From positions 1 to 36,625 of IMG/VR virus record IMGVR_UViG_3300031920_000020: 36,625 nucleotides of DNA; one strand, 5' to 3'. The position numbers and the translations under genes are program-made. Each line of letters opens with the position of its first letter. Position 1 is the first letter of the stretch. The notes under the pieces were generated by a model. That model saw only the letters and a list, made by a program, of their open reading frames with translations. It was not told where the DNA came from and made no database searches. This DNA comes from a virus. Shown here piece by piece: positions 1 through 36,625 of the stretch.

Positions 1-28
1 TACAGCACTATATGTTAATGCATACAGG
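1..28. repeat. 28-nt terminal overlap, identical to 36598..36625; indicates circular closure or assembly overlap of a complete genome
   Basis: tacagcactatatgttaatgcatacagg is present at both ends. Reading across the junction reconstitutes a full copy of the two-block repeat also found at 27830..27926. Confidence 0.85.
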
Positions 29-42
29 CTATAATTGCTGTT

Positions 43-83
43 ACGTTCTTAATTTCTTTCTTCTATGATGCAACCTTATTATA
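43..83 (-). repeat. Block 1 of two-block repeat, copy I (contains the promoter-like 23-mer)
   Basis: acgttcttaatttctttcttctatgatgcaaccttattata is near-identical to 27882..27926. Confidence 0.8.
58..80 (-). promoter_or_regulatory. Phage-RNAP-type (SP6/K11-like) promoter-like 23-mer upstream of the early genes, across the circular junction
   Basis: Minus strand reads AATAAGGTTGCATCATAGAAGAA. It is one of 5 conserved co-oriented copies, 12 nt downstream of the terminase stop and about 100 nt upstream of the ATG at 36557. Confidence 0.55.
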
Positions 84-92
84 CAGATCTAC

Positions 93-1979
93 TTAGCCGA
101 ACCTATTCCTGCTCTTACAGACTTTCCCAGAGGTAGGCTTCCTAGGTGTAAACTTACCAGAGCCACTTGCCTTAGAGATGGCAGAGAAACCATTTCTTCC
201 ACCTTTAGGTTTAGTTCCGGTTAGCCATACTCTTCGAGAGGTAGGATCAGACCATTCACTGATGATCTTCATAGCTTCATGCCTACGTTTAGCCTCAATT
301 ACAATCTGAGTATCAAAGTCAAGTCTCTCTACTACGAATCTGATAGCACTAGCTAGTGCATCTATCCTATCATCATGCCTCAAGCATCCTCTCTCTCTCG
401 TAAGCATTGCTAGTTGATGAACAAATCTGTACGTTGTCTGCAACTCAGCAGGGTACAGCGCTACAGATCTCTGATCTTCATCTAATGCTGAAGGACATAT
501 AAGAAGTCTATGGCTAGATAGGAGGGGTTCTATTACATCTATGATCCTAAGCTCCTTCTGACCTGACTCATTGACTTCCTCTAGTGTCACAGGCCACTTC
601 CCCTTAGCAAACAGGGGCTTCAGCATACTAGCATGTGCTCCATTGCCATAGTTCTTTTCTATAACAACTGTCTTCGCCTGGAACTTCTTTGCTACCTCTA
701 CGAGCTGTTTTAGCTTTGCCTCCTCATATCCACCTGGAACCCCACCAATAGCAACGATGTATATATAAGCTCCTATCAGTTTGATTACAGCGTATCCTGT
801 CTCATCCCCTTGCTTTCCCCCTCCTGCCGGGTCTATGTACATAACAGTTTTCTCGAAATCTCGAATTTCATATCCAAACGGGGATACACGGTACAATTTG
901 TACTTGCCACCATATCCAGCGCTTCGGTACAAATGAAGGGGATTGTTCGACCATATGGGTAGTACCGGACCCCTCACCACTGAAAAGTCAGCCACCATCA
1001 AGTTAGCGAGTTTTAAGGGGTATCGCTCTGTATCACTCAAGGTAGTGTTCAGCATGTACTGAAGCTGGAACTTTGCTTTACCCTGTGAGATCTCCTTCTC
1101 TAGCAGTAGTAGCTCATTGAACATCTCTGGACAGGTCGGTTGGCCCGAAGCACCATCCATTCCCCCACCCTCCATAATAGAAGGGTCGAGCTTCATGTCC
1201 TGCTTAAGCATAGGTGCTAGGTTGTCCCCATAATTATCAAGCTCATCCATGTTTGGATATCTACCTGTCCATACCCGTATAGTGTAACCCCTGGCTTCCA
1301 GGTTATTGTATATCGACTCAACACTCTGAGGTGTACCAAGGTAGAGTATATCACCATCTGCACATACTGACTCAAACTCTTTAGTCAGATCCTCTAGCTG
1401 ATCTCTAGTCATGACTGTTCTTGAGTTCTTCATGGATTCACAGTCATCTGCTATCAGAATGTCAGCACGTGATCCCTGTAGGGAAGCATCAACTCCCATA
1501 CACTTCACTGAGGGTGACTTCTCTGTTCCTTTGAATAGCCAGTGAACATCATACCATTCCACAGACTCATGATCTCCTGCATTCTTGTCGGGTCTTAGCA
1601 TCCATAGGATGTCTAGCCCATTCACTATTTGTATTACAAAGTTGGCTATCTCTTTCGACATTTTACTACCAGCAGACACAATTAATATTCTGCTATTAGG
1701 CTCATGAATCAACCTAAACACTGAGTAGATTGCAGTAAGAGTAGTCTTAGCCTGTCCACGCTGGGCCTGTACCATCCTAAACTTCGGCCCACCATAAATC
1801 CATTTACATATATCTTGTTGTATCCTGTTAATATCAGGATTACCCCTAATCAACTCTGAGATGCAGACCTGAGCAAAGTTCAGAAAGCCCATCAATGTAT
1901 TGGGAAAGGCTTCCTGAACTTCGGCTAAGGCTAGACGCATCTCCAGTTCATCTTCACTGGACATTTCTCTACGGCTCAT
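93..1979 (-). CDS. terL: Terminase large subunit (T7 gp19-like)
   Basis: 628 aa and the last gene of the late operon. It has an ATPase-like region (RGQAKTT, ILIADDCES) and a C-terminal nuclease-like region (MYIDPAGGGKQGDETG). AGGAGG lies 5 nt upstream of the ATG. Confidence 0.9.
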   Translation of the reverse strand: MSRREMSSEDELEMRLALAEVQEAFPNTLMGFLNFAQVCISELIRGNPDINRIQQDICKWIYGGPKFRMVQAQRGQAKTTLTAIYSVFRLIHEPNSRILIVSAGSKMSKEIANFVIQIVNGLDILWMLRPDKNAGDHESVEWYDVHWLFKGTEKSPSVKCMGVDASLQGSRADILIADDCESMKNSRTVMTRDQLEDLTKEFESVCADGDILYLGTPQSVESIYNNLEARGYTIRVWTGRYPNMDELDNYGDNLAPMLKQDMKLDPSIMEGGGMDGASGQPTCPEMFNELLLLEKEISQGKAKFQLQYMLNTTLSDTERYPLKLANLMVADFSVVRGPVLPIWSNNPLHLYRSAGYGGKYKLYRVSPFGYEIRDFEKTVMYIDPAGGGKQGDETGYAVIKLIGAYIYIVAIGGVPGGYEEAKLKQLVEVAKKFQAKTVVIEKNYGNGAHASMLKPLFAKGKWPVTLEEVNESGQKELRIIDVIEPLLSSHRLLICPSALDEDQRSVALYPAELQTTYRFVHQLAMLTRERGCLRHDDRIDALASAIRFVVERLDFDTQIVIEAKRRHEAMKIISEWSDPTSRRVWLTGTKPKGGRNGFSAISKASGSGKFTPRKPTSGKVCKSRNRFG

Positions 1980-1987
1980 CTATCCTC

Positions 1988-2308
1988 CTATATAGCTTCC
2001 TTTGCATCAGCAAACGGTATGATCTTACCTTTATTCCTCTCCTTAAGGGCAGCAAGCTTCTTGGCAAGAGGAGACTCCTCATCCATCTCCGCTGTTGTGC
2101 AAGAGACTCCATTGTACTCTACCCACTTCTGCATGGTAGCAAGGTCTCTTGAGTTGATAGCAAGTGCTATCTCCTCGGCATCATGCCCCTCATTCACCAG
2201 ATCTTCTACATGCTCAAGCATACTCTTAGCCTTTTGATTATGACACATAGTAATCAGCTTGTGCAGTATGCCTATCTGATCTTCTGTAGCTGCATTCTTA
2301 TTGCTCAT
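1988..2308 (-). CDS. Putative small terminase subunit (gp18 position)
   Basis: 106 aa, helical and charged. It ends 8 nt upstream of terL, whose SD overlaps its stop. The call rests on position only. Confidence 0.5.
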   Translation of the reverse strand: MSNKNAATEDQIGILHKLITMCHNQKAKSMLEHVEDLVNEGHDAEEIALAINSRDLATMQKWVEYNGVSCTTAEMDEESPLAKKLAALKERNKGKIIPFADAKEAI

Positions 2309-2471
2309 TCCTCCTCCTATTCTTTCCTCTAGCCTTATCTATCAACTTCCAAATAAGCAACGTTGCCTGAAGCACCATCAACACACCAGCTCCCGTCTCT
2401 GTCCAATTACTGGTGAGATAGGCACCCCATGTGAATCCTACGTGTCCTGTTACAACAATCACATCATCCAT
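2298..2471 (-). CDS. Putative holin (T7 gp17.5 position); 57 aa, below the ORF-track cutoff
   Basis: Hand translation gives MDDVIVVTGHVGFTWGAYLTSNWTETGAGVLMVLQATLLIWKLIDKARGKNRRRNEQ. It has a hydrophobic segment and a basic tail. It sits between the fibre and terS and overlaps the terS start. GGGGG lies 7 nt upstream of the ATG. Confidence 0.4.
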   Translation of the reverse strand: MDDVIVVTGHVGFTWGAYLTSNWTETGAGVLMVLQATLLIWKLIDKARGKNRRRNEQ

Positions 2472-2528
2472 GTATTGCCCCCGTACTCATGCCCTACTGT
2501 GGTAGCTAGGGCTTATTGATTATTACTT

Positions 2529-5057
2529 TCAATCACAATACTCTAATTGCAAAATGCCCTCAGTAAATGAAGATGTTATACTTGATAGTTGTACCGTAAT
2601 GACTTCATTTGAGTGTATAAGAGCTTCTGCTGCTGTTATAGCCCCAAGGTCTTTGAAGCTATAAGCAGTTCCATTCGCAAAACCTGCCGCAGTTACTAAT
2701 GTCCCACTAAAAGAACCTGTGGACAGATTTCTCTTACTCACCAGTACTTGCATTGACGTTATAGTATTGTTTACAAGTACACCTGCTCTGGCTATAAATG
2801 CGGGGAAGTCAACCACCATTATTAGGTGTAGCGTGGTATCGTTAACAATGCCAAATGATAACTTCTTTCCTAGCGTTAATGTATCGCCTTTTATCTGTGA
2901 AGTTGCATGGCCCGATGAGTCGTTGTCTTTTAAATATACCGCACCTGTCACAACAATCCCTTCGGTTTGGTGAGCACCATTGGGTCGAACTATATTACCA
3001 GTTATAATTCCGCCTGACCCGTTAACCACCAGGATTCCGATTCTCTGACCTGACCCCTCTAGCGTCCCATTGTTGTTTACAGTATTTCTGTTTATATCTA
3101 AATCGGTACAATCTTCTAACCTAACACCAGCCTTTCCATTTCCGTAAACAAAGTTACCGCTTACTTTTGGGCTATTACCATTTATCATATGCACACCATA
3201 TCCTGCATTGTTGTATATGTGGTTTGCCCCTTCTACAGCCACGGTATCAATACCAAGTTGAGCTGCCGTGTTATCTTCTACGGATATCCCATCATCATCA
3301 TTATCATATATGAAATTGCCTGATATTATATACTCCTTATCGCCCTCGACTATGGCTTCCGAATCATTCTGTTTAATATCTATTCCAGACGTAACATTAC
3401 CATAAATGTGATTATCAGTTATAATACATCTAGTTCCTTCTATAAATAGATCAATACCATCTTGTGATACAGCAGGATCGCCGTTGCCATTGTTCCTAAT
3501 TATATTATCGGTAATTATAATGTTCTGAACATTTCTGTAAGTCCTGAGTCCATCTCTTGAGGAAGCCTCCGAGATGTTCCCAACAAAAATTAATCCGTCA
3601 ATGTCAGAAAGGTACGTATTGTGAGAACAGTCATGGATATGACAGTTAGTTATTGAAACCCCTTCTGATTGTAAAACTCCGTTCTGTGTTTCGTGGCCAG
3701 AAATACCGCCCCACGATTGAGTAATTTCAGCGTGATCTATGCTGAAATCACTTCCTCCATTTAGTATTATTGATGCAGACCAAATATCTGTAATGGAGGC
3801 AGTCCACTTTCCACCATATATCTGAATATCATCATTTGTTATGATAAGGGAACCACTTGAAGTTGTGGTTCCGAACAAGGTGTGAGTCTCATATAATAAA
3901 GTAGCTCCCTTTGCGATGATTACAGTGCCCGCTAGAGGCTCCCAGTTAAGCAAGCTATAAGTTTTCCCCTGTTCAAACACTACTTTTTTGCTATGCACAT
4001 TAAAGGCAGCAACAACCGCAGTGTCATCCCCGCCCCCAGTAACACTTCCAAAATGAGATATTTTCAACTCTCCTTGTCTGACTAAGCAACTACTTGCACC
4101 TGTTGGATCAGAATCCAACGGTACATAAACCCCACCTAAAGGATCTGCTGCAACCTCTGCTGTATAATTTCCGGCAAGCAATAAGAACTCTCCGTCACCA
4201 CCATCACCTATAGCACTCCTTCCAAGTGTCTCATACTTCTGACCTGCTACCAGTGTGGTAGATGCACTCATCTGTGCTTTAGTATCAAAAGGTAAAGTCC
4301 AATCAGCAATGATCTGCTGTGCCTCTTCTAGTTGATCTAAGATGTCAGGCAATCCATTATGAGTGAAAGAGAATATTTTCACTGCTACACCTACTGGCAA
4401 CTCACTCCCTGCATTGACGTACTTTGTAGTGCCAGTAGTCACTAAGACACCAGAGATATCACAAGGGAAAGCATCATACTGTAGCACACCGTCAGCATAC
4501 AACGTGCTAGTTATAGGAAAGGCTGGTATAGAGAAGGACAACTCGAACACAGTCTTGGCTACTGCAACTACCTCTGTATGAGTCTGAGCTGCATTAATCT
4601 CGGCCGCTGCTAATGCTTCGTCCAGTTGTCCTAGAGTCACTGCGTCCTGTGCATTAACCCCATTTGCTAAGTTGAATATACTAAACCCACCCACGTTAAG
4701 AGCTTGCTTCTCATAATATGATTCACTCTTGAACCCATCTATAATATTATGAATGTTATAGAGCTGACTCTGGAACGACCTGTTCATATTAGTCTGGGTG
4801 AAGTCGCTTCCCCTTGAGAAGTCAGCATAAGGTGATGCGAAGTCAGGATCTCTTTTGATTCTAACTTTTGCCCCTATCACAGGGGTAACCGCCAGTGTAA
4901 CTTGAGTAGGCCCGGTCAGTGTAAATGCTACAACTACTTCATCTACAGTCACTATCAATTGATCTAAAGTCCAATACCCATTGTCTGGGCCTGTAAAGGC
5001 GAAGGGAAAGGCTACTTTGACCCCATCCCCTACCTCATCTGAAAAACTATATCCCAT
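2529..5057 (-). CDS. Tail fibre/tailspike: T7 gp17-like N-terminal adaptor plus right-handed beta-helix (pectate-lyase-like) domain
   Basis: 842 aa. The N-terminus (FPFAF..LIVTVDEV..DFSRGS..FQSQLYN..LNVGG..AQDAVTLGQL) looks like the gp17 N-domain. Residues about 470-700 carry repeated NxxxxG/NNxG beta-helix turns (ITDNIIRNNGNG, ISGNFIYDNDDDG, HIYNNAGYG, VSGNFVYGNGKAG, INRNTVNNNG). Confidence 0.85.
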   Translation of the reverse strand: MGYSFSDEVGDGVKVAFPFAFTGPDNGYWTLDQLIVTVDEVVVAFTLTGPTQVTLAVTPVIGAKVRIKRDPDFASPYADFSRGSDFTQTNMNRSFQSQLYNIHNIIDGFKSESYYEKQALNVGGFSIFNLANGVNAQDAVTLGQLDEALAAAEINAAQTHTEVVAVAKTVFELSFSIPAFPITSTLYADGVLQYDAFPCDISGVLVTTGTTKYVNAGSELPVGVAVKIFSFTHNGLPDILDQLEEAQQIIADWTLPFDTKAQMSASTTLVAGQKYETLGRSAIGDGGDGEFLLLAGNYTAEVAADPLGGVYVPLDSDPTGASSCLVRQGELKISHFGSVTGGGDDTAVVAAFNVHSKKVVFEQGKTYSLLNWEPLAGTVIIAKGATLLYETHTLFGTTTSSGSLIITNDDIQIYGGKWTASITDIWSASIILNGGSDFSIDHAEITQSWGGISGHETQNGVLQSEGVSITNCHIHDCSHNTYLSDIDGLIFVGNISEASSRDGLRTYRNVQNIIITDNIIRNNGNGDPAVSQDGIDLFIEGTRCIITDNHIYGNVTSGIDIKQNDSEAIVEGDKEYIISGNFIYDNDDDGISVEDNTAAQLGIDTVAVEGANHIYNNAGYGVHMINGNSPKVSGNFVYGNGKAGVRLEDCTDLDINRNTVNNNGTLEGSGQRIGILVVNGSGGIITGNIVRPNGAHQTEGIVVTGAVYLKDNDSSGHATSQIKGDTLTLGKKLSFGIVNDTTLHLIMVVDFPAFIARAGVLVNNTITSMQVLVSKRNLSTGSFSGTLVTAAGFANGTAYSFKDLGAITAAEALIHSNEVITVQLSSITSSFTEGILQLEYCD

Positions 5058-5065
5058 ATTTCCTC

Positions 5066-8000
5066 CTAGTCTACTATTCCTCTTAGAGCGTTTATGCCCT
5101 GATTGATCCCTATTGTCTTAGCAAAGGGTGCAATATCCTGAACTTCCTTAATCGCCCTACTCATTGTTTCATCCCCTGTGAGGGCTTGCATGATTACCTT
5201 CTGTGCTTCAAAGACATCCTTTGCTACTCCAATCACAGGTACTGAGTCATTAGTCATAGCTCTGGCACCTACCTGATCCCTACCTGATAGGAGTGCATCT
5301 GGGAGAACACCAAGAGTTGCCAGCCCATCCATCCCTATACCTACTGCTGCTAGTTGCCCCATCCTATTCAGGATACCTAGGGTCAGGTTGGAACCTGTCA
5401 TGTCACTGAGTATTTTCTCCTCAGCATTATCCTTTCCTAGGTTCCTCTGAAGTGAAGCTATACCTACCGCCATAAATCCGTACATAGCAGACTGCATACC
5501 TATCAGTGCACCCATAACCTTATCGTGCCTGATGTCATGCACTAGCTGTTTCTCCATAGATAATATAGAGAAGCTCCTGAACTGAGTCATGGTCTGGCCT
5601 AGCCACCTATTCATAAACTGTGGCATCTCACCTATCATGGGCCTCTGCATCTGTCTCATTGTTATTCGATGCATACCTATCTGCAACCTTTCCTGCATGT
5701 CAGGTGTCATCTTACCAAAGTTAAACATGTCAATTTCTCTTCCATTGATCTTAGCTGTCTTCGGGTTGTCCTTCATGAACTGTTTAACCTCATCTAAGAA
5801 CCCATCATGCCATCCAGCACTATTTATCTCAGCCTCACTGAGGAGACTCTTACCACCTTTCATCATCTTCTTTATATCTATGGCGAGTGCCCGTACAGCT
5901 AACCTCTCCCCTGTTCCCTGAATCAGTCGGAATCCGCTGGCTACTTCACCAATTCTCCTCCCCTGTGCTAACGCGTTATCAAAGTACTGTGCTATCCTAC
6001 TAGCTCCCTCAGCCTCCTCAATGTCATCAGCTCTGAGTCCATTTGGGTATAAGATATGGTCCTCACCATTGTACATGATTACATCCTCTAGTTCATCCAG
6101 ATCTTCTCTCTTCAGATGACCACTCCACTCTCCACCCTCTCTCAGGTGTTTAGTCCCCCTGATAGCTCCCAGATCCTTGACAGCTTCTAGGACTGAGGAT
6201 AACTGCCTTTGAGATGTGATACGTGCTAACTCCGGTATAGATGCAGCACCAACAAACTGTAGTCTAAGGAGAGATGTTGCACTCCTGACCCTGCTAAGAG
6301 CCTTAATCATCCCACTCTCATCTACAGGATTAAGAGTCCTTCCATAAGCCATATCAACTCCGTCCCTCAAGATCTTGATCTCCCTCTTAAGATCAGAAGC
6401 ATTCTGCCCTATATCCTCTCCTCTCTTTTCCAGTATAGCTATCTCATCAAGTACTTGAGATCTAGTTGTCAACCCTATCTTAGCAAAGGCTGCTCCTCCA
6501 GCAGCATCTCTGGTATAGGACTCAAGTATTCTAGGCAGATCATTAACTATAAGATCTATATACTTCAGACCATTTGATTCAACTGTGATGTTTGGACGTA
6601 ACGACTTCTTAGCCCTATTGCTCATATGCTGTCTTACTTCGGTATCCATGGAACTCTTTAAGAAGTCATCGACAACATCATCCTCAACTCCAGCCTTCTT
6701 GAGCTGATCAACTAGATCCTGTATGTCCTTATTGGTTGACTTCCTACCCTGCTCAGCCATTACTAGAGTATCATCCTTTGCTCTCTGTATATGAGCATCA
6801 GCCACCCTATCAGCTAGATCCTTTTCTAGTTGGAACCCACCCCTCTGGTACCCTAATGATAGTACCTCCCTTACGGTTGACTCCTCATTATTACGCAATG
6901 CATTCTTTATCTTTACACTATCCTGGATCACTGGGACATATGGTTTATTTAGATCTACATTCTCCATCCCAGCACCATTTGCATCTTGCCAGATCTTACC
7001 ACCTTTGTAGAACTGGTCCTTCCCCCCTTCAGCAGCAGCTTTAATAGCTGGAGAACTGGAGGTTCCAGGCGCATATAGTTCAAGCATTACTTCTTTATGA
7101 TACTTGTTAATATTGGATGGAACCATCAGGGACTTATAAGAACTGAGGCCATTCTCTGCACCCCATACTCTCATGTTCTCATTGAGTCTATTACGCATAG
7201 CCCCTCTAATCATAGTCTGACCATTCTTGACCCTGGATGCTATAGTTGCAGCAGCAGCTTTCCCACCCTGGGGTGCCTCGAAGAGTAAGTATCCGAACCC
7301 TCTTATAGCAAAGTTATGAGAGTTGGATATTCTAGCCTGTACAGACATGATAGCATCAGTAACTTTGGACTTCCAAGGAAGCATAGCCCCTCTTACATCC
7401 TCTGCTTGATCTATACCAAGCCGTTCGTAACCCTCTATCCTAGCTTTCTGTGAGGTGTCTAGCTTATGTATCTCAGGGACAGGGTTCTCAGTAAATCCAG
7501 ACTCGGCTGCACCTACAGACCCTGCCTTGCCACGCTCGGCCTTCTCAGCAGCATCCCTCTCCAAGGTTCCTTGCAGAGACTCTCTCTGCCTTTCAGCCTC
7601 AACCTTCAAAGAAGGTGGACCCTCATCCCCATATAGGATGTCTACCTTTTCCTGCTCTGTCATCTTATTCCACTTCCTCAGACTATTAGCAGATGTCTTT
7701 GCATCCCTCCCTACTTCCAGCCTGGCCTGGGCATCTGACAACTGCTCTGTCAGTAATCTCTTGGTCTCCTTAGCAGCTCTGGAAGCCTTCTTAAGAGAGT
7801 CAGTGAACTTCTTCTCAACCTTCTTTATGCTTCTTTTAAGAGATGTTTCAAGCTTAGCTGTCTCAACATCTCTGGCCTTCTTGGCCTTAGTTAGCTCTTC
7901 CTTCGCCTCAAATAACTGACCAGCTCTCTTATCTGTCTCTTTCCTTCTGATGAGGTCTTCCAGTCTACTGACCTTCTCCTCAGCCTTAGAGATGGTAGCT

Positions 8001-16452: not shown

Positions 16453-16492
16453 AAAAAGAACCCCCCCACCATTCAATAGGTAGGAGGGTTCT
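16453..16492 (-). terminator. Hairpin plus U-run terminator downstream of the capsid gene (T-phi-like position)
   Basis: Minus strand reads AGAACCC-U-CCUACC-UAUUGAAU-GGUGGG-G-GGGUUCU followed by UUUUG. It is followed directly by the SD of the next gene. Confidence 0.75.
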
Positions 16493-16503
16493 GATAGTTC
16501 AAT

Positions 16504-16519: not shown

Positions 16520-16532
16520 TAATTCAACCTCA

Positions 16533-17674: not shown

Positions 17675-17697
17675 CTCTTCTATGATGCAACCTAATT
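17675..17697 (-). promoter_or_regulatory. Phage-RNAP-type promoter-like 23-mer upstream of the capsid gene
   Basis: Minus strand reads AATTAGGTTGCATCATAGAAGAG. It matches the SP6 consensus ATTTAGGTGACACTATAGAAGAG (recalled) at 18/23 ungapped positions. It lies 47 nt upstream of the capsid ATG. Confidence 0.6.
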
Positions 17698-26665: not shown

Positions 26666-26688
26666 TCTTTCTATGATGCAACCTAATT
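26666..26688 (-). promoter_or_regulatory. Phage-RNAP-type promoter-like 23-mer
   Basis: Minus strand reads AATTAGGTTGCATCATAGAAAGA. It overlaps the TAA stop of the upstream ORF and lies 79 nt upstream of the ATG at 26592. Confidence 0.55.
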
Positions 26689-27829: not shown

Positions 27830-27926
27830 CCTTACAGCACTATAGGCTAATGCGGATAAGGGATAAGGGATATTATTGTTGACGTTCTTAATTTTCTTTT
27901 CTTTCTATGATGCAACCTTATTATAA
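27830..27926 (-). repeat. Two-block repeat, copy II (block 2 at 27830..27853; block 1 at 27882..27926)
   Basis: Minus-strand block 1 reads TTATAATAAGGTTGCATCATAGAAAGAAAAGAAAATTAAGAACGT. Block 2 reads GCATTAGCCTATAGTGCTGTAAGG. Both match copy I (1..83 plus 36595..36625). GGATAAG is tandemly repeated between the blocks. Confidence 0.8.
27900..27922 (-). promoter_or_regulatory. Phage-RNAP-type promoter-like 23-mer upstream of the SSB-like gene
   Basis: Minus strand reads AATAAGGTTGCATCATAGAAAGA. It forms the last codons and TAG stop of the DUF1353 gene. Confidence 0.55.
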
Positions 27927-28624: not shown

Positions 28625-31132
28625 CTAGTGGGTCTCAGTCCAACTAAGCCCAATTTTATACTCTCCTGCTGTTGGACATAGCAATCTTAGCTCCTCGCCA
28701 GCCCATGTTATAGAGTCACAGTATAGCTGTCCTAGTGGATGATACCTACGCTGGATGATCCAAGCATCTTCTCTCTTCTCAATCACAGTTGGTGCAGACC
28801 ACATCCTTCCTTCACTATCCCTGTGTTCTCTCTTCTCATCTAACTTCCATGCTTCCTTTGTAGGTTTGATATGATACTCATATGACAGCACCTCACTCTC
28901 TGGGACTTCCATCTGTGCCTCATCATGCTGATGAGCTACCATCCTAAAATCTGCTGCACGTTCTATTAGCCCTTGCTCCACTGCCATATCTTCTGCTCTA
29001 ACGTGTGCATGTTTCATGACAAGAGATCCTGTCATCTGTAGCAGTACATTAAGAGCTGTATGAATGGATAAGGTCTTGCCCTTGCTACGGATACGTCCAC
29101 GCCTACCATCTACAGCAAGCATGTACCCGAACTTCTTACCAGCAGCTTGCACTCCTTCAATCAGAGTAGCCAGCTTAGGTAGCTGCTCCTTGAATAACTC
29201 TACAGCATCAGCCATGTCCTGCATCTTCAGTCCTAGCTGCCTTGCAAGGTTCTTAATACCAGAGCCATACAGGAATGAATACACAAATACCTTGGCAATG
29301 TCACGGCTAGTAAGTCCAGCCTTCTCTTGATTGTAGGTGTGAATATCACCATTAAGTATGATGTCTGTATACTCTGGATCATTCATGAAGTGAGCAAGCA
29401 TCCTCAGTTCCAGACCTGCTCCATCACACCCAAGCAACATCATCCCTGGACCAGCTATGAAACATCTCCTCATCTGAGTCCCATACAGTCCACGAGCTGG
29501 GATGTTGACTACTATCTTATGTCTCATGCGATGGGTGTTGGTTGCACAAGCAAAGGCGTGTGCTGGTACTCTCCAGTGACCTGATGTAGGCCACACTCCA
29601 TTTAGTTCGTAGTATTCTTGAGCAGTGATGCTGCCGTGAGTAGCTCCAGCTCCCCAAAGTCTAGATTTAGGCAGGAGTCCACGGCATTCGTTATTCTTGC
29701 TAGCTTGTCTAGGCCATCTCTTGTTGAGACTGAAGTAATCAACATCTTTTCGGTTGAGTAACTGTGTACGCCGCGCGGACAGTATGTACCAACGTGCAAT
29801 ACCCTTGCACCAGTCGGGCACTGTGGATTCTGATTCTTCCCATCTTTCGAGGGACTTATCATCAATCTTCCCGGCCCATGGCTTGGGCAAGTCACCGTCG
29901 TTCTCTTCGATATAATCCGTTTCTGCATCATTGAAGTTGACTCCTATCCATCCATATTTGTATAGTATCTGCTTGACCTCATCTCTGTTACCAAGTGGTA
30001 TGTCTTCCCAGACTAGAGGTGTAAACGGGCCAGCAACTGGAGGCTTAGGGTAAGCTACGATATGCTTAACTCCTAAATGATCTGCTACCTCCAAGTCTAC
30101 AGTATGATCCTGCATGAACCCTCTTGCTGCTGGCACATGCTTGGTAACATTCTTTCCATACTCTCCATTCTTCTTAGTGATAGCCCAGATAGTTGAAGCG
30201 TACCCAGCCCTCATATCACCATTTAGCATATGATTCTCGTACTCCCCGGCTGGCATTGACAATAGCTCAGCTATAGCTGCCGCATTCTTCTCTATAGCAG
30301 CCTCACTATACTTCTTCATCTTAATACGTTGAGGCATGTGAGGCATGAATGCATCTCTGGTTGCTTTGATCTCTATGTCAAGCTCCTCTATGAGAGAACC
30401 CATAAACTCTACATCTATCGCAAACCCACGCTCAGCTTGATAGGCTACTGACTGTGCTACTCTGAACTCGTTCTCATAGGCTGAACGAATATCCTTTCCT
30501 GTTATATTATGAGGTCTATCAAGATGATCATCCCACTCTTTCATAAGGAAATTAAAGAAGTCCTCACCAATCTCAACATCCTCTGCTACCCTGTGTATCA
30601 TATCAATAGATAGGTGAGACCAATCTTCATGGTGTGGCTTGTGCCTGTCTATCCTTATACCATGTGCTGCAATAGAGTGAGGAGGTACATTACCTAAGCC
30701 TAGGTGCAGTGCTGCCCAAGGTGCCCTCCTCTCTGGGTTAAGAACCTGACTCATCACCATGGTATCAGCAGTCTTAAACGGGAACAGCTCATGGTTGATT
30801 CGTTGCATGTGATTACGCTTGATCTTAACACCCATAGCCTTCTCTATAGCTAGTTGGTCATACCCAACTACATTCTGCCAGATGAGGACATCACAGGTCT
30901 CGATACATCTGATACCTTCAGCCATATCTCCAGCCTTCTCATCTTCTTCATACTCATCCAGCCATACTGGATCTACTCTATCATTGAAGTCGTCAAAGAA
31001 AGAGAATGTCTCCCCTGAGTAGTAGTCTTTTAACCTGAGTATATGTAGATCCTCTCTGTGTCCTGGGCGAATATCAGGGAGGAGACCTACTGCTTCTAAA
31101 TCAGCGGTTAATACTCTTCCTTTTCCGTTCAT
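28625..31132 (-). CDS. Family A DNA polymerase with 3'-5' exonuclease domain
   Basis: Exo I is LTADLEAVGL. Motif A is CDGAGLELRMLAHF, motif B is RDIAKVFVYSFLYGSG and motif C is VAHQHDEAQMEV. Confidence 0.9.
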   Translation of the reverse strand: MNGKGRVLTADLEAVGLLPDIRPGHREDLHILRLKDYYSGETFSFFDDFNDRVDPVWLDEYEEDEKAGDMAEGIRCIETCDVLIWQNVVGYDQLAIEKAMGVKIKRNHMQRINHELFPFKTADTMVMSQVLNPERRAPWAALHLGLGNVPPHSIAAHGIRIDRHKPHHEDWSHLSIDMIHRVAEDVEIGEDFFNFLMKEWDDHLDRPHNITGKDIRSAYENEFRVAQSVAYQAERGFAIDVEFMGSLIEELDIEIKATRDAFMPHMPQRIKMKKYSEAAIEKNAAAIAELLSMPAGEYENHMLNGDMRAGYASTIWAITKKNGEYGKNVTKHVPAARGFMQDHTVDLEVADHLGVKHIVAYPKPPVAGPFTPLVWEDIPLGNRDEVKQILYKYGWIGVNFNDAETDYIEENDGDLPKPWAGKIDDKSLERWEESESTVPDWCKGIARWYILSARRTQLLNRKDVDYFSLNKRWPRQASKNNECRGLLPKSRLWGAGATHGSITAQEYYELNGVWPTSGHWRVPAHAFACATNTHRMRHKIVVNIPARGLYGTQMRRCFIAGPGMMLLGCDGAGLELRMLAHFMNDPEYTDIILNGDIHTYNQEKAGLTSRDIAKVFVYSFLYGSGIKNLARQLGLKMQDMADAVELFKEQLPKLATLIEGVQAAGKKFGYMLAVDGRRGRIRSKGKTLSIHTALNVLLQMTGSLVMKHAHVRAEDMAVEQGLIERAADFRMVAHQHDEAQMEVPESEVLSYEYHIKPTKEAWKLDEKREHRDSEGRMWSAPTVIEKREDAWIIQRRYHPLGQLYCDSITWAGEELRLLCPTAGEYKIGLSWTETH

Positions 31133-31508: not shown

Positions 31509-31521
31509 CCTCACAAAATAT

Positions 31522-31537
31522 GTCTCACGTGTGAGAC
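31522..31537. promoter_or_regulatory. Dyad GTCTCAC-GT-GTGAGAC (copy 2 of 3)
   Basis: It abuts the TAG stop of 31537..32202. An extra GTGAGG half-site lies 7 nt further on the minus strand. Confidence 0.6.
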
Positions 31538-32202
31538 TATTTAAGTATATTCTTACGTAATTGTACTGGCCTAGCTTTTGAGTACAAATAGTAGTTAGCA
31601 GTAGGGTAATACTTGTAGTACTTTCTTAACATTCTATTATCCCCATAGTAGGAGACAATATCAGTCACGTTGACCTCACCCATCATTGATGAGTCAGAGA
31701 GATCTTTTGCTACGCACTGACAAGAGAGTGGAAAGAACTCCAGCATCCAGTGGTATATAGAGTCATGATTTATAATAGCATACAGCAAGTCAAACTTAAC
31801 ACCCTGACTCTCGAGCTTCACTATTACTTTACAACTGCCATCATCATTAATCTCTTCATCTGCCGCATCCTCTTCATCTGCCGCATGATACTGTACGTAG
31901 ACTTCACAACTAGAGAATCCTAGCACTAAATAGTTCTTTTCCCAGAAGGTCTTGATCTTCTCTGTGTCCCAAGTTCCAGTTCTATCCCAGATAACCAGAT
32001 CATAGTCATTAGCCTTGTGGGGTAAGAGTGAACCACCTACCTGATAGACCTTGATCTTATCATTAGACATCTTGTGCAGTTCCATCAGTGCTGTCATGTA
32101 GGCATTAGCATGTATCTCTTTAGCCACGTTATACCACGCGTGTGATACAGATTTTCCTGATCCTCTTACACTCCCTACCATTGCTACATTAGTATGAGTC
32201 AT
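31537..32202 (-). CDS. Hypothetical protein with a possible pol-beta-type nucleotidyltransferase motif
   Basis: The start is trimmed to MTHTNV (ATG 32202 after GGAGAGG; it overlaps the primase-helicase end by 14 nt). VGGSLLPHKANDYDLVIW fits hG[GS]-x7-DxD, and a later VKFDLLY could supply the third acidic residue. AADEE(D) is duplicated from an 18-nt tandem repeat at about 31853..31886. Confidence 0.3.
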   Translation of the reverse strand: MTHTNVAMVGSVRGSGKSVSHAWYNVAKEIHANAYMTALMELHKMSNDKIKVYQVGGSLLPHKANDYDLVIWDRTGTWDTEKIKTFWEKNYLVLGFSSCEVYVQYHAADEEDAADEEINDDGSCKVIVKLESQGVKFDLLYAIINHDSIYHWMLEFFPLSCQCVAKDLSDSSMMGEVNVTDIVSYYGDNRMLRKYYKYYPTANYYLYSKARPVQLRKNILK

Positions 32203-34168
32203 TGTCCTCTCCATATTGTTTAGGTTGCTTACGTTTCTTATTAACTCCATCATCAAACCCATCCTGTACAGGAGGTCTGTCCTCAGTCTGTTCCAGCTTA
32301 CCTGTGCTCATGTTCTTCTTAGTGTATACCTTAGTCCCTGTCATGTGACCAACCTCTCTGGTCTTAAGGTTCTTCAGTATGAGTAGACATCTCTCACTTA
32401 AGGTAGGTGCTGTCGTGTTACGTATCCCAGCCCAAACATCATCAGCCCAAAATACAATACTCCCAGCACCCCTAAAATCATTGAGTGTGACATCTCCTCC
32501 CTCCTCGAATGGTGTTCGATCGCCATAGACTTTCTTAAGGTGAGATAATAGGAAGATTGATATAGGATTCTCATCCTTGAATGTACCTAGCCTCTTCATC
32601 GTCTCATCAATAGCCTCTACTTTTGAAACAGCTTTACCATTTTCTCCTTTATGCTCAAAAGCAGTGAGGTTATCAACCACGAACTTTGTAAACCCAAGAG
32701 CAGAAGCCTCTTCCAGCACTTGCATAACGCTCGATACATCCTTACGACCTTCGAGGTCTCCAATATAGATTCTATTGTCATTACATAACCTGTCAATTGC
32801 TTCATTAGCTTCCTCCTCTGTATAGTCTCTAAGTTCCTCGTAGTCAGGGTCATCTTTGTCATTGCAAGGAGGAGCATTGAGGTTCTTATTGATGAGGTAT
32901 CCAGCGAAGGAACGTACTGTCTTGTCTGCTCTCTCCTCTAGGTAGATTACAACGAGCTGGATGTTGAAGGTGTAGGCTAGAAAGAATACGACCTCCTTAG
33001 TTAAGGTAGTCTTTCCAACACCCGTACCCATACCCCAGACAGACATCGTGTAGTCTCGGATACCATAGGTTACTTTATTCATCAGCTCCCAAGGCCAGGA
33101 CAGCCCCATAGTAGGAACCTTCTTTGCCTTCTCTCTATACTTATCCATGGAGTTAAGATATCCACCTTCAAATAGGTCAGCAGGGTTCCACCATGCATCC
33201 ATGAACTCCTTCCCTCTACCTTGCTTGAGTGCATCATTAGGATCTTTGCATCCAGCGGGTAGCTTGAGCTGCTTAACCTTGGTGCGGAAGATACGACCAA
33301 CATCTCTATTGAGTTTCTTACCTACCTCATCATCATCGAAGCAGACTAAGACCTTCTTAAACTTGTTGATCTCATCCTTGTTCAGAATGATCTCTTCAAT
33401 AGCCATCTCTCCCTTAGTTGGTGACCATACGTGTTCATAGACCCCCTCCCACTTGCTGCCTACCTTGGCCTCCAGCATCATAGTCTGTGCAGCTAGCACA
33501 TCACACTCACCACCTACTAACAAGAGCGTATCCATCCTAGCCCCTGACTCCATAGCTGCTGCTGTCTGCTTCTGTCCAAACATGAGATTGTCACCCCAAG
33601 TCCAACCGAGTGACCCATACTTGAAATCTTTAGGTAGGGTACGACACTTAGCTCCCTTCCACTCGCCATCATGATAGTCATAGGTTGGGTAATAATGTCT
33701 AGCTACCTTGCCATCTAATCCTAACCCAACTCGCACGTTATAGAACTTAGCTACGTTCCCTGGGATGTGTCTCGATACAAGGTTCTTAACCTTAAGTTGA
33801 TTGAAGTAAGACTCGTCACCATTCCTCTCTTCTATCAGTCTATCTCTCTCATCTTGGTTGGCAACCGCCCAGCGGTCCACGCCTTTCATTCCAGATAGAG
33901 CTATCTCTCTGATCGTAGGGTTATCGAGCTTGCCTTCTCTAACCAGTTCCTCAAACTGACTCTGTGTGTACTTGATTGTTCCAGTTACTTCCATGTTCAA
34001 TATAGGACTCTCACCATCAGCAGGGATTAGCAGCACTTGTCCATCCTTATGCCAATGTGCTCTATTGCAAAACTTGACACCATCAGAGAATACAATCATG
34101 TTAGTCCCCTTAGCATCATGCCCCATGTGCTGGCATTCAGGGCAAGGTACATTCATCACGATACTCAT
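32189..34168 (-). CDS. Bifunctional primase-helicase (T7 gp4-like)
   Basis: 659 aa. It has an N-terminal zinc motif (CPECQH...C..AHWH), a TOPRIM region (LLVGGECD...VCFDDDEVGKK) and a DnaB-like Walker A (GMGTGVGKTT). Confidence 0.9.
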   Translation of the reverse strand: MSIVMNVPCPECQHMGHDAKGTNMIVFSDGVKFCNRAHWHKDGQVLLIPADGESPILNMEVTGTIKYTQSQFEELVREGKLDNPTIREIALSGMKGVDRWAVANQDERDRLIEERNGDESYFNQLKVKNLVSRHIPGNVAKFYNVRVGLGLDGKVARHYYPTYDYHDGEWKGAKCRTLPKDFKYGSLGWTWGDNLMFGQKQTAAAMESGARMDTLLLVGGECDVLAAQTMMLEAKVGSKWEGVYEHVWSPTKGEMAIEEIILNKDEINKFKKVLVCFDDDEVGKKLNRDVGRIFRTKVKQLKLPAGCKDPNDALKQGRGKEFMDAWWNPADLFEGGYLNSMDKYREKAKKVPTMGLSWPWELMNKVTYGIRDYTMSVWGMGTGVGKTTLTKEVVFFLAYTFNIQLVVIYLEERADKTVRSFAGYLINKNLNAPPCNDKDDPDYEELRDYTEEEANEAIDRLCNDNRIYIGDLEGRKDVSSVMQVLEEASALGFTKFVVDNLTAFEHKGENGKAVSKVEAIDETMKRLGTFKDENPISIFLLSHLKKVYGDRTPFEEGGDVTLNDFRGAGSIVFWADDVWAGIRNTTAPTLSERCLLILKNLKTREVGHMTGTKVYTKKNMSTGKLEQTEDRPPVQDGFDDGVNKKRKQPKQYGEDNDSY

Positions 34169-34226: not shown

Positions 34227-35162
34227 TCACAATAGAAATGTTTCTTTGAATGTTTGTAAGCCTTTCCTCCCTGTCCACCCAGCAGTATGACCACCTTCAA
34301 GAATGTACTTAAAGGATGGCCCACTAACCTTATCAGCGAGAGCTAGTACTTGCCTTGAGTCAGTGATATTATCAGTTCTACCAGCGTAGCAATGAGTTGG
34401 ACAGGTGATGCTTTCTAGCTTAACTAGTTTACCATTCACTCTCCATGTCCCATCATACAGTCTGTTATCACGGAACAGATTTTCTAACGCATCCATAAAC
34501 CACACACCAGCTAGATCAAGTTTGTTATCGTACCATGCATTATTCTTATCCCACTTGGCAAGACCAACCTCATCACTGTTACGTACCATCTCGGCTCTAT
34601 CAAGGTGTCGTTGTACATAGATCTGATGAGGGTCAACCATACTAAATGCAAGCCATTGCAAGGCACCTAGTTGAAGCCCTAAGTTCATCATTACTACCAT
34701 GCGTTGCATCTCTACCACAAAGGGCTTGCGCATGTGCTTCTCAATCAGATTATCAGGAGCACAGTTAGTATTAATAGGGGCCACAAATACAGCCAGCTTC
34801 TTAACGTTATCAGGGTTCTGTGCAGTGTAGATGCTAGATACCCACCCACCCTGACACAACCCGACTATCTCAATGTCAACACCAAGGAACTCATGTATTG
34901 CACCTATAGCATTGACAAGATCACTAACACTTGTATTATTTGTCATCCATGTAGCTGACTTAAGCTCGAATGCTACTACAGGTCTTCCAGTCTGGACAGC
35001 AACTTTTATGAGGTTAAGGCTAATAGTCCAGTCCCGACCAGCATGTGGAGGAACTACTACTATTGGTGTTCCTGTTCCTGTTGAAAACATGTGCCATACA
35101 TAAACAGGTGTCTCGATAACTTTGGTACTACCATATTTAGTTTCCATTGTAACCTCAATCAA
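34227..35162 (-). CDS. PHA-synthase-like (class III PhaC-like) alpha/beta-hydrolase with Cys nucleophile
   Basis: 311 aa. Motifs are PIVVVPPHAGRDW, GxCxGG box GLCQGGW, NLFRDNRLYDGTWRVNGKLVKLESITCPTHCYAGRTDNITD and EGGHTAG. This gives a Cys-Asp-His order as in PhaC. Confidence 0.65.
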   Translation of the reverse strand: MIEVTMETKYGSTKVIETPVYVWHMFSTGTGTPIVVVPPHAGRDWTISLNLIKVAVQTGRPVVAFELKSATWMTNNTSVSDLVNAIGAIHEFLGVDIEIVGLCQGGWVSSIYTAQNPDNVKKLAVFVAPINTNCAPDNLIEKHMRKPFVVEMQRMVVMMNLGLQLGALQWLAFSMVDPHQIYVQRHLDRAEMVRNSDEVGLAKWDKNNAWYDNKLDLAGVWFMDALENLFRDNRLYDGTWRVNGKLVKLESITCPTHCYAGRTDNITDSRQVLALADKVSGPSFKYILEGGHTAGWTGRKGLQTFKETFLL

Positions 35163-35192: not shown

Positions 35193-35194
35193 TC

Positions 35195-35217
35195 TTATTC
35201 TATGATACAACCTAATT
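35195..35217 (-). promoter_or_regulatory. Phage-RNAP-type promoter-like 23-mer (variant)
   Basis: Minus strand reads AATTAGGTTGTATCATAGAATAA. It overlaps the TAG stop of the 210-aa ORF and lies 38 nt upstream of the ATG at 35162. Confidence 0.5.
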
Positions 35218-35844
35218 CAGCAAGAAGCCCTCTATCTTTCCTTGGCACATGCATCTTTGCTCCGTAAGGTATCGGAGGTCATCATTAACATCCATCCAGA
35301 ATGTGTCACCTCTGTCCCCTCTCAACCTTAGTTGAGTACCTGCTTTCGATATTGTTAACCTCATAACAAGGAAGTTATCTCCTCCACCCCAATCATGGTA
35401 TGCAAGGTCATATGCAACACCAGCAAGGTCAGCGTGAGTAGTCCATGGGATAGGTGTGAAGTTAATATCAAGACCATCGATAGTTACACCTACTGTCATA
35501 CCGTTAGGGAGAGGCGCTGCTGGCACTTGATTACCCCAGCCTCCACTATCAAACGAACCTCCATCCCTAATGAGGAATACGAACCTAGTCATAATATAGA
35601 TCTGTCCTATTGGCACATCCAAATTGAACCTAACAGGTGTTATAGATCCGTCTACTGCCATGTTCCTATTTACTGTAGTAGGTGGTGGGCCTTGAAACAG
35701 GGACTTATAGAATGGTGCCTCTTGTGGCCCACTCATAGCATCTTTTATGATCTGATCGTACCTAGTGGCTGGGGCTTCAGGTGGATCGCCCTGCATTTCA
35801 TAGTAGTCTCTCTTTACTTCCCCTTCTAGCACTCTCAAGGTCAT
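35212..35844 (-). CDS. Hypothetical 210-aa protein (predicted beta-rich)
   Basis: SD is GGGAGGT. I could not recognise any motif. Confidence 0.6.
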   Translation of the reverse strand: MTLRVLEGEVKRDYYEMQGDPPEAPATRYDQIIKDAMSGPQEAPFYKSLFQGPPPTTVNRNMAVDGSITPVRFNLDVPIGQIYIMTRFVFLIRDGGSFDSGGWGNQVPAAPLPNGMTVGVTIDGLDINFTPIPWTTHADLAGVAYDLAYHDWGGGDNFLVMRLTISKAGTQLRLRGDRGDTFWMDVNDDLRYLTEQRCMCQGKIEGFLLN

Positions 35845-35861
35845 ACCTACCTCCCATTATC

Positions 35862-35889
35862 AAAAGAAACCCCGCCCATAAAGGCGAGG
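35862..35889 (-). terminator. Hairpin plus U-run terminator after the early ORFs
   Basis: Minus strand reads CCUCGCC-UUUAUG-GGCGGGG (7 bp including one G.U pair) followed by UUUCUUUUG. The SD of the next gene follows directly. Confidence 0.65.
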
Positions 35890-35908
35890 CTAGTTGTCTA
35901 CCTATCGT

Positions 35909-35924
35909 GTCTCACATGTGAGAC
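35909..35924. promoter_or_regulatory. Dyad GTCTCAC-AT-GTGAGAC (copy 3 of 3; perfect 16-bp palindrome)
   Basis: It abuts the TAG stop of 35924..36208. Confidence 0.6.
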
Positions 35925-36208
35925 TACTCTAATTCAAATGAATCAAACACATCATACACTATCCAAGATCCATCATCATAGCCACGTTCAAGATGTAGAT
36001 AAGCTAGATTTAGTACAGCTATTGTCTCTATGAGAACTGACCTTAGTGCTATCTGTCCATTGTCTTCGAAGTATACTGCTTCCCCTGGACTCTTCATTGC
36101 CTTAGCTATCAGTCGCAGAGCCTCAGCCTTTGATTGACCACTACATCTGCTGATACATTTCTTATTTAGTGAGTATTTACCAGACAGTTTGTTATGAAAG
36201 ACTTTCAT
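35924..36208 (-). CDS. Hypothetical early protein
   Basis: 94 aa. SD is GAGGG. Confidence 0.55.
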   Translation of the reverse strand: MKVFHNKLSGKYSLNKKCISRCSGQSKAEALRLIAKAMKSPGEAVYFEDNGQIALRSVLIETIAVLNLAYLHLERGYDDGSWIVYDVFDSFELE

Positions 36209-36329
36209 GGTCTACCCTCTTGTTAGTGCGCTCTACTTTGCGCTTTCTATCTGTTGACTTATCCTTGCTGGGAAGTGCTTCTTTGTCCAGCTTCCTTGGC
36301 TTCCTCATCTTCTCAACATTTGTCTGCAT
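36192..36329 (-). CDS. Possible small basic early ORF (45 aa; below the track cutoff)
   Basis: Hand translation gives MQTNVEKMRKPRKLDKEALPSKDKSTDRKRKVERTNKRVDHESLS. AAGGGA lies upstream. It fills an otherwise 130-nt gap and overlaps the next start. Confidence 0.3.
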   Translation of the reverse strand: MQTNVEKMRKPRKLDKEALPSKDKSTDRKRKVERTNKRVDHESLS

Positions 36330-36338
36330 TGCATCCCT

Positions 36339-36557
36339 TTAGAATAATTTGTTAGCCCGTCTAAGCACTACTCTTATGTCTTGTTTTAAGGCGGTCAATA
36401 TAGCTAGGGGATTACTTGGTGCTGCTCCTCTCATTCTAGATATCTTGAAATCAAACTCACCAACTCCATTATGCGCATAGGGATCTATCTCAGTGATATC
36501 TACTGTATATTTAGTTCCTTCTGCCTCTAGCTCCATTGTACATTCTGTCTCAGACAT
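36339..36557 (-). CDS. Hypothetical first early protein
   Basis: 72 aa with a weak SD. It is the first ORF downstream of repeat copy I. Confidence 0.5.
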   Translation of the reverse strand: MSETECTMELEAEGTKYTVDITEIDPYAHNGVGEFDFKISRMRGAAPSNPLAILTALKQDIRVVLRRANKLF

Positions 36558-36594
36558 AGTGTTCTCTCAGTTATAGTTAATTTAGACTACTAGC

Positions 36595-36618
36595 CCTTAC
36601 AGCACTATATGTTAATGC
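36595..36618 (-). repeat. Block 2 of two-block repeat, copy I
   Basis: Minus strand reads GCATTAACATATAGTGCTGTAAGG, versus GCATTAGCCTATAGTGCTGTAAGG at 27830..27853. Confidence 0.8.
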
Positions 36619-36625
36619 ATACAGG
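36598..36625. repeat. Second copy of the 28-nt terminal overlap
   Basis: Exact identity to 1..28. Confidence 0.85.

Follow-up and report, generated by a model that had tools for sequence, protein, structure and literature searches.

The viral record IMGVR_UViG_3300031920_000020, analyzed here over its full length of 36,625 nt (hereafter, the window), carries five near-identical 23-nt elements that resemble the promoters of T7-group single-subunit RNA polymerases (RNAPs), in a contig where an initial annotation, made from the DNA letters alone, had recognized no gene for such an enzyme. The window comes from the Joint Genome Institute (JGI) and Logan assemblies of SRR1971621, a cold-seep metagenome from the Haakon Mosby Mud Volcano, and a full T7-type gene set was found in it by Pfam and PHROG searches. 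Its structural genes encode the terminase and small terminase, a tail fiber whose N-terminal adaptor is of the T7 type, nozzle, tube, capsid, scaffold and portal, as well as gp16-, gp15- and gp14-like internal virion proteins, and the other assigned genes encode ligase, phosphoesterase, exonuclease, an endonuclease VII homologue, a family A DNA polymerase (DNAP) and the primase/helicase (for coordinates of key features, see Table 1). From the primase/helicase through the terminase, the window is collinear with SP6, based on tblastn comparison with the SP6 annotation, and its nearest cultured phages are those of the SP6/K1E group (47% identity for the DNAP and ~50% for the terminase). No nucleotide match to deposited phages was found when 25 kb of the window were compared with GenBank phages by megablast, and a single-protein search of IMG/VR with the window terminase returned no relatives. 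The window probably represents the greater part of the genome of a podovirus that is SP6-like (Molineuxvirinae-like), uncultured and derived from a cold-seep metagenome.

In a DNA motif search of the window, AATWAGGTTGCATCATAGAA was matched exactly five times, in each case on the minus strand, with no mismatches at positions 61–80, 17678–17697, 26669–26688 and 27903–27922, and one mismatch at 35198–35217. The number of matches expected by chance is 0.01, none of 100 shuffles gave five, and a repeat search clusters all five copies into one 29-nt family. No further copies were detected on either strand of the window at a threshold of at least 12 bits, using a position weight matrix built from the window copies together with those of the relatives discussed below. 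The five copies are identical at 19–20 of the 20 core positions, and conservation fades within ~3 nt on either side, such that the conserved block extends from −17 to about +6, with separate −35 and −10 hexamers being absent. Every long open reading frame (ORF) of the window is encoded on the minus strand, and the five promoters are co-oriented with the genes, each being either intergenic or overlapping the preceding stop codon, ~47–100 nt ahead of the next ATG. The set of five co-oriented elements, and their placement upstream of the genes named in the initial annotation, are thereby both confirmed.

The positions of the individual copies recur in related phages. Copy 1 is the counterpart of the promoter at position 83 of the relative L028 and of T7 phiOR, and copies 2 and 4 are positional homologues of the SP6 promoters at 22413–22435 and 13005–13027, respectively, with copy 4 preceding a 247-aa gene that is homologous to SP6 gp18. 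Copy 3 lies upstream of a 100-aa gene (26290–26592), while copy 5 occupies the same position, upstream of the primase, as the promoters at 8944 in L028 and 4588 in L101. The hexamer TATAAT is found ahead of copies 1, 3 and 4 and is absent from copies 2 and 5, no −35 element is present 16–18 nt upstream of it at the promoter copies, and sigma70-like sites are neither enriched in the window nor, in any instance, well placed. A sigma54 or sigma70 architecture for the motif was considered and rejected on the basis of the unfit spacing and of the copies from which TATAAT is missing.

The initial annotation had also noted a match at 18 of 23 positions between the capsid copy and an SP6 consensus. 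A search of the SP6 genome with this consensus gave seven sites, and the likeness became closer still, with the capsid copy being identical at 19 of 23 ungapped positions to the SP6 promoter at 8411–8433 (AATTAGGTGACACTATAGAAGAG). Like the promoters of SP6 (Zindervirus) and of K1E and K1-5 (Vectrevirus), phages of the Autographiviridae (Molineuxvirinae), the window elements are 23-nt blocks that extend from −17 to +6, carry AATTAGGT at their 5' ends and have ATAGAAG in the vicinity of +1, and the sequence AATTA...CATAG/AAG is in register with the SP6 promoters, being AT-rich from −17 to −13 and having ATAG at −3 to +1. The four differences from the SP6 site cluster at about −9/−8 and −5/−4, where the window core reads TTGCATC as compared to TGACACT in SP6-type promoters. 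In T7 RNAP, this is the region in which the specificity loop reads the promoter, and the differing core leads one to expect a different polymerase specificity. Window and SP6 are further alike in that one promoter precedes the capsid gene and another the gp18 homologue. The window differs from SP6 and K1E in that an RNAP gene, an early region and a post-terminase tailspike module are all absent from its contig, and its proteins are 25–51% identical to those of the SP6/K1E group. Taken together, the −17 to +6 block, the covarying motif of the relatives and the shared SP6 positions substantiate the T7-group signature originally proposed, and the assignment of the five 23-mers as promoters of a T7-group (SP6-type) single-subunit RNAP is well supported as a prediction from sequence, with transcription probably starting at the G of CATAG, as judged by alignment with SP6.

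The corresponding polymerase was searched for throughout the window. Neither an RNAP gene nor a remnant of one was found there, the best tblastn match obtained with four RNAPs of the SP6 clade and the gp7-like protein having E = 0.8, and every ORF of at least 300 aa could be assigned to another function by Pfam and PHROG searches. The sole polymerase in the window is the family A DNAP, as the initial annotation had stated. The same annotation had singled out the ORFs at 5066–9031 and 10350–12641 as places where a polymerase might hide; both proved to match virion proteins instead of an RNAP, with residues 22–1316 of the former matching a gp16-type internal virion protein (phrog_342, E = 1e-130) as well as SP6 gp37, and the latter, together with the ORF at 9040–10350, matching SP6 gp36. 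The ORFs that remain without a function are at most 247 aa long, and have homologues in SP6 or in RNAP-bearing relatives from the clade.

The relatives show where an RNAP gene would be expected. In 49 of 55 IMG/VR relatives, RNAP is encoded 0.4–3.2 kb upstream of the primase, which answers the question, raised in the initial annotation, of whether relatives carry the gene and where. Four of the six exceptions have less than 1.5 kb of upstream DNA, one (L034) has no RNAP in the 3.8 kb upstream of the primase, where its contig ends, and one is a scrambled database record. In L105 and L106 (JGI 3300028549 and 3300033562), the primase of which is 68% identical to that of the window, the primase is preceded by an ORF of 549 aa in which a faint CBM_4_9 signal was detected, no RNAP is present within 2.7 kb upstream of the primase, where the contig ends, and the promoter motif was not found at up to three mismatches.

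The closest full relative is the 44-kb IMGVR_UViG_3300005264_000045 (L028, L029, L030 and L033, with L028, L029 and L030 being three independent assemblies), which is 70% identical to the window in the primase, 61% in the DNAP and 52% in the 207/210-aa protein. It shares with the window the promoter family (AATTAGGTTGCNTCATAGA), the GTCTCAC..GTGAGAC hairpins and the terminase-promoter arrangement, but has in addition repeat arrays, sigma70 consensus promoters, early genes of 127 and 386 aa and an 874-aa RNAP, and this extra module separates the 207-aa gene from the terminase side. It also has a ribonucleotide reductase, and does not have the alpha/beta-hydrolase gene of the window. The L028 RNAP, at 4601–7225, has RPOL_N and RNA_pol domains, and the first 21 kb of L028 contain eight copies of the promoter family of the window, of which one is post-terminase, one is in the non-coding left end, two lie directly after RNAP, one precedes the primase and three are located further downstream.

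Lineage-specific variants of the motif occur in L100, L101, L034, L096 and L037 (TTGCAACATAG in L101 and L034; GGGACCAGTATAG in L037), which is the pattern expected of polymerase-promoter co-evolution. The motif is accompanied by RNAP in L028, L101 and L037, and no RNAP is present on the examined contigs of L034, L096 and L100. From these data, the consensus promoter of the uncultured cold-seep SP6-like clade would be AATWAGGTTGCATCATAGAAR. Scans for exact promoter sequence in wider collections were unproductive: a 16-mer scan of IMG/VR gave 25 single hits, unrelated to the window with the exception of one metallophosphatase match and attributable to chance, and a 20-mer scan of a metagenome collection, in which the source contig of the window is not included, gave one hit, an exact match to the promoter core at 9699–9720 of L032 (22 nt), in single copy on a 172-kb metagenome contig of low coding density and without phage features. 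A 19-mer scan of bacterial genomes likewise gave one hit, a single exact match to the core at 216–234 of L104 (19 nt), in a Syntrophaceae metagenome-assembled genome; these isolated matches are probably due to chance.

Gene order places the start of the window contig with respect to the missing gene. L028 has RNAP, a terminator, two promoters, genes of 76, 69, 59 and 42 aa, the 207-aa gene, a promoter and the primase, and L101 has RNAP, two promoters, genes of 84, 43 and 71 aa, a terminator, the 209-aa gene, a promoter and the primase. In the window, the contig start is followed by genes of 72, 45 and 94 aa, a terminator, the 210-aa gene, promoter copy 5, the 311-aa hydrolase gene and the primase. 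It follows from the gene order of the relatives that the window contig begins in the post-RNAP promoter region. The homologue of the 210-aa gene sits directly past the primase in L037. The T7 early layout comprises gene 1, the phi1.1A/B promoters, gene 1.1 and the terminator TE, with phiOR near the right end of the genome. The relatives are T7-like in that promoters directly follow the RNAP gene and are themselves followed by a basic protein of ~42–45 aa, an intrinsic terminator ends the small-gene cluster and a phage promoter is found after the terminase; the window is unlike T7 in that the RNAP gene is not on its contig. Basic "MQ" ORFs in the interval between RNAP and primase, at the position of T7 gene 1.1, also occur in L039, L077, L101 and L028, and homology of the 45-aa ORF of the window to T7 gene 1.1 was not supported by Pfam.

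More than the RNAP gene is missing. Between its post-terminase genes and RNAP, L028 has ~0.85 kb of repeat arrays (1185–2030) of the sort typically seen at T7-type genome ends, then a phage promoter and two sigma70 promoters close to consensus (TTGCAA-16-TATAAT, preceded by TG, and TTGACA-16-TATTAT), the arrays and sigma70 promoters together spanning 1185–2460, followed by the 127-aa and 386-aa genes ahead of RNAP. The 386-aa protein is a homologue of SP6 gp7 that is encoded in nearly all SP6-like loci and is not found in the window, where we likewise detected no repeat arrays or consensus sigma70 promoters of the L028 type. The absence of the gp7-like gene, arrays and host promoters means that the whole left-end module is missing, not RNAP alone, and a molecule without this module would have no early transcription and no recognizable packaging ends.

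The ends of the contig point to the same boundary. The only exact repeat of at least 28 nt in the window is that between positions 1–28 and 36598–36625, and an overlap of this length corresponds neither to any usual assembler k nor to a terminal repeat of ~150–250 bp with flanking arrays, as would be indicative of a complete genome. The Logan k = 31 contig L027, which is identical to the window and the ends of which are identical in two samples, begins at 36600, 25 nt inside the JGI start at 36625. The two assemblies start differently, whereas equal starts would be expected if branches converged there or if the DNA physically ended there. For a contig emerging from a branching repeat, the start lies k − 1 nt (node-centric graph, k = 31) or k nt (SPAdes-type graph, k = 55) before the end of the repeat, and since 36600 − 29 = 36625 − 54 = 36571, both starts match an out-branch after a repeat that ends at 36571. 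Applied to the other contig end, the same rule would place the start of the repeat at window position 55, and the repeat, R, would thus consist of minus-strand positions 55..1 followed by 36597..36571, a total of 82 nt, with the 28-nt overlap equal to 2 × 55 − 82.

So defined, R starts 3 nt past promoter copy 1 and stops 14 nt short of the start codon (ATG) of the 72-aa gene; it would be a promoter leader, and can form a hairpin. Promoter-plus-leader units are duplicated within the window, a diverged second copy of the leader being located downstream of copy 4 (Table 1), and leaders flank the RNAP region in L028 (2031–2099 vs 7345–7449, after the promoters at 2031 and 7347). L027 is uninterrupted from the 72-aa gene as far as the DNAP, which locates the gap at the contig junction; as this k = 31 contig is thus continuous from the 94-aa gene to the 210-aa gene, a collapse in that interval was considered and rejected. 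We also rejected a linear genome whose terminal repeat is 28 bp long, as the k = 31 start would then be 36625, and not 36600 in two samples, and as the first gene would have no promoter. The initial statement that the genome appears closed at 36.6 kb is therefore not upheld, considering the 28-nt overlap, the k = 31 break 25 nt inward and the absent left-end module.

Taking these observations together, we consider it likely that the five repeats are promoters of the lineage's own RNAP, and that the gene encoding this RNAP lies just beyond the contig boundary, at the repeated 82-nt leader. The 23-mers would in this case be class II/III promoters of the phage's own single-subunit enzyme, and the contig would span from the post-RNAP promoter leader to a near-identical post-terminase promoter leader. 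Both leaders would carry R, and a k = 55 graph would cut the contig there, giving rise to a spurious 28-nt terminal overlap. The genome would then take the form of terminase, promoter copy 1, R, a left-end module (genome ends, host promoters, early genes, gp7-like gene, RNAP and promoter), R, and the 72-aa gene onward, with the 7–10 kb left-end module, including repeat arrays and RNAP, residing on another contig. Promoters without a polymerase are, most probably, a contig-boundary artifact, and loss of the RNAP gene through repeat-mediated assembly is the best supported of the four explanations offered by the initial annotation.

A candidate for the missing RNAP is P0139, an 883-aa protein the gene of which lies on a contig of 9,790 nt that, like the window, is sourced from JGI and Logan. 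This protein is 61% identical to the L028 RNAP, and is the only RNAP in the expected identity range to occur as a JGI and Logan singleton. No primase is listed on its contig, and its identity profile shows the highest correlation with that of the window primase (r = 0.86). A search with the gp7-like protein gave no match on a contig of this length (9,790 nt).

A number of points weigh against this explanation. The value k = 55 was picked after the fact from among the standard k values, and we infer this k, the double occurrence of R in one genome and the identity of the missing RNAP alike. The graph topology is equally well explained by a different co-occurring phage that shares R, and an exact intragenomic repeat of 82 nt is more extreme than the observed leader duplications, which are 70–90% identical. 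The Logan breaks at 30449, 6961 and 1095 (L027 and L031) fall neither in repeats nor in especially conserved motifs. The identity-profile test does not discriminate among ~10 candidate RNAPs, and the P0139 contig is absent from IMG/VR and from the metagenome collection that was scanned. With respect to the breaks themselves, the contigs ending at 30449, 6961 and 1095 recur with the same ends in two samples, which points to microdiversity among strains or to the presence of a related phage.

The most substantial of the alternatives, which we nevertheless regard as unlikely, is that the 36.6-kb genome is real, closed and RNAP-less, its promoters being read by the RNAP of a related co-infecting SP6-like phage. 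Such a genome would be either a deletion derivative, formed by recombination between promoter leaders, or a helper-dependent lineage. In keeping with this, the window contains no RNAP or remnant, its promoters are intact and nearly identical to one another, and the RNAP-bearing relatives use almost the same promoter, making cross-recognition plausible. In L028, the RNAP region lies between direct repeats of promoter plus leader, which offers a route to deletion, and the graph branch at R implies another R-containing sequence in the same sample; a helper phage of the same specificity could be this second context of R. However, the end arrays, the host early promoters and the gp7-like gene are gone as well, which would leave the molecule without obvious packaging ends or early transcription, the 28-nt overlap is unlike that of a clean circle at any usual k, and a parental genome alone accounts for the graph, such that no deletion product is needed. 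In addition, every adequately sampled relative has RNAP, and the sole RNAP-less database example in the group is a scrambled assembly. This is the RefSeq record NC_047809.1 (L094/L054), Escherichia phage vB_EcoP_K, a "complete genome" of 37,775 bp without the early region and RNAP, which is ~6–7 kb shorter than its siblings. In comparison with the sibling vB_EcoP_B (44,018 bp), its terminal pieces are inverted and no capsid gene is annotated at the sibling's position, and the loss of RNAP looks like an assembly artifact in the reference record. Unlike the window, vB_EcoP_K is a cultured, autonomously growing phage, and it serves as a precedent only. Supply of the RNAP in trans, as put forward in the initial annotation, is thus a minority possibility, for which the plausible cross-recognition speaks and against which the missing left-end module as a whole counts. 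The stronger reading of the same data, in which the phage is a transcriptional parasite that lost RNAP, early genes and host promoters, kept its five promoters and uses the RNAP of a helper, is improbable.

Far less probable again is that host RNAP, alone or with a phage specificity factor, initiates at these sites, as in phages similar to SIO1 and Cobavirus. RNAP-less podoviruses of the T7 supergroup that are related to Autographivirinae do exist, namely roseophage SIO1 and the Cobavirus group, and these resemble the window in combining a T7-like replication and structural module with the lack of an RNAP gene (PMC6918029). Furthermore, three of the five copies are preceded by TATAAT. Against this explanation, TATAAT is missing from the other two copies, the conserved block has no −35/−10 architecture, sigma70-like sites are not enriched in the window, and the motif is identical at 19 of 23 positions to an SP6 RNAP promoter and is used by RNAP-encoding relatives, directly after their RNAP gene. 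The 210-aa protein is common to RNAP-encoding relatives, and is therefore not a replacement factor. To our knowledge, the SIO1 and Cobavirus lineages have not been described as having T7-type promoter families, and the window is unlike them in that its nearest relatives are RNAP-encoding SP6-like phages, the promoters of which it has kept. Finally, one of the window's virion proteins or of its proteins without a known function could be a very divergent RNAP, as the 210-aa and 241-aa ORFs and those at 5066–9031 and 10350–12641 have no Pfam hit. We consider this hardly credible, given that the two large ORFs match gp16-type/SP6 gp37 and SP6 gp36 proteins, that the other unassigned ORFs are at most 247 aa long and have homologues in RNAP-carrying phages, and that tblastn with the clade RNAPs gave nothing better than E = 0.8. 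Both of these proposals from the initial annotation are disfavored by the ORF assignments, the motif architecture and the RNAP-encoding relatives.

Table 1. Coordinates of promoter copies, leader repeats and selected genes and terminators in the 36,625-nt window
Feature	Position	Strand	Remarks
R, first 55 nt	1..55	-	Contig end; deduced from the contig ends
Promoter copy 1	58..80	-	AATAAGGTTGCATCATAGAAGAA; 12 nt past the terminase stop
Terminase large subunit	93..1979	-	Final gene; promoter copy 1 and the contig end come next
Intrinsic terminator, strong	16457..16492	-	Directly past the capsid gene; T7 Tphi position
Promoter copy 2	17675..17697	-	Scaffold/capsid gap; +1 ~47 nt before the capsid ATG
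Promoter copy 3	26666..26688	-	Overlaps the stop of the 118-aa ORF; ~79 nt to next ATG
Diverged second leader copy	27830..27894	-	Downstream of promoter copy 4; shared ATTAAGAACGT ... CTATAGTGCTGTAAGG
Promoter copy 4	27900..27922	-	Overlaps the stop of the 152-aa ORF; ~97 nt to next ATG
Family A DNA polymerase	28625..31132	-	47% identical to SP6/K1E group
Primase/helicase	32189..34168	-	Synteny anchor; 70% identical to closest RNAP-encoding relative
Promoter copy 5	35195..35217	-	TTGTATC variant; overlaps the stop of the 210-aa ORF; ~53 nt to next ATG
210-aa gene	35212..35844	-	46–52% identical to the 207–209-aa gene of L028 and L101
Intrinsic terminator	35868..35891	-	Between the 94-aa and 210-aa genes; L101 counterpart at 3915–3938
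94-aa ORF	35924..36208	-	Last of the small-gene cluster; weak homologue upstream of the primase in L034
45-aa basic ORF	36192..36329	-	MQTNVEKMRKPRKL...; resembles the 42–50-aa "MQ" basic ORFs
72-aa ORF	36339..36557	-	First gene past the contig start; member of the post-RNAP small-gene cluster
R (proposed), last 55 nt	36571..36625	-	Contig start; Logan k = 31 start 36600 = R end minus 29

Several further features of the window were noted. An early gene for a 311-aa alpha/beta-hydrolase (34227–35162, minus strand), with weak similarity to PHB-depolymerase and DUF3141, lies between promoter copy 5 and the primase, and has a homologue in none of the relatives that were fetched. The portal gene is split into an N-terminal part (19647–20795) and a C-terminal part (18476–18856, minus strand), with an HNH endonuclease ORF (19074–19583) between them and a sub-threshold Rfam match to the 3' end of the group I intron model at 18971–19001 (E = 2.7e-4). 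The relative L042 is without this insertion, which is likely either a group I intron that carries the HNH gene or a homing endonuclease gene standing by itself. Right after the stop of the portal N-terminal part, at 19623–19649 on the minus strand, the sequence TTAATTAGGTGAAACTCCCTATGGGAC shares AATTAGGTGA with SP6 promoters and is without the window's own core; this site could be due to chance, or could be a foreign promoter brought with the inserted element.

Other proteins also depart from their SP6 counterparts. The homologue of SP6 gp36, a 978-aa internal protein with a lysozyme domain in SP6, is encoded by two abutting ORFs at 9040–12641 on the minus strand, one of 763 aa and the other of 436 aa, the latter with the lysozyme domain. 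The exonuclease (24345–25700, minus strand) has an insertion of ~75 aa relative to SP6, with an alignment gap between residues 274 and 349. The 3' part of this ORF contains one of four copies of a perfect hairpin, GTCTCAC-N4-GTGAGAC, that are found in the window at 16502–16524, 24477–24499, 31520–31542 and 35907–35929. The hairpin is clade-wide, with seven copies in L028 and further occurrences in L101, and mostly lies directly after stop codons, where it may act as an RNA processing or pause site.

The promoter family described here is real, and belongs to a new, uncultured SP6-like phage. The window also constitutes a cautionary case, as viral contigs are commonly declared "complete" on the strength of a short overlap between their ends, and the overlap seen here probably stems from a repeated promoter leader, hiding the loss of 7–10 kb that include a hallmark gene; that a RefSeq record from the same phage group (vB_EcoP_K) shows a similar loss indicates that this artifact does occur. 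Were the minority explanation of an RNAP supplied by another phage to hold, this would be the first T7-group phage to depend on the RNAP of another phage, and thus a new form of phage-phage parasitism. If, on the other hand, the RNAP gene lies just beyond the contig boundary, as we consider likely, our analysis defines a clade promoter consensus and its co-variation across cold-seep SP6-like phages, and, in combination with this consensus, the RNAPs of the clade (L028 4601–7225 and P0139) could give new orthogonal polymerase/promoter pairs.

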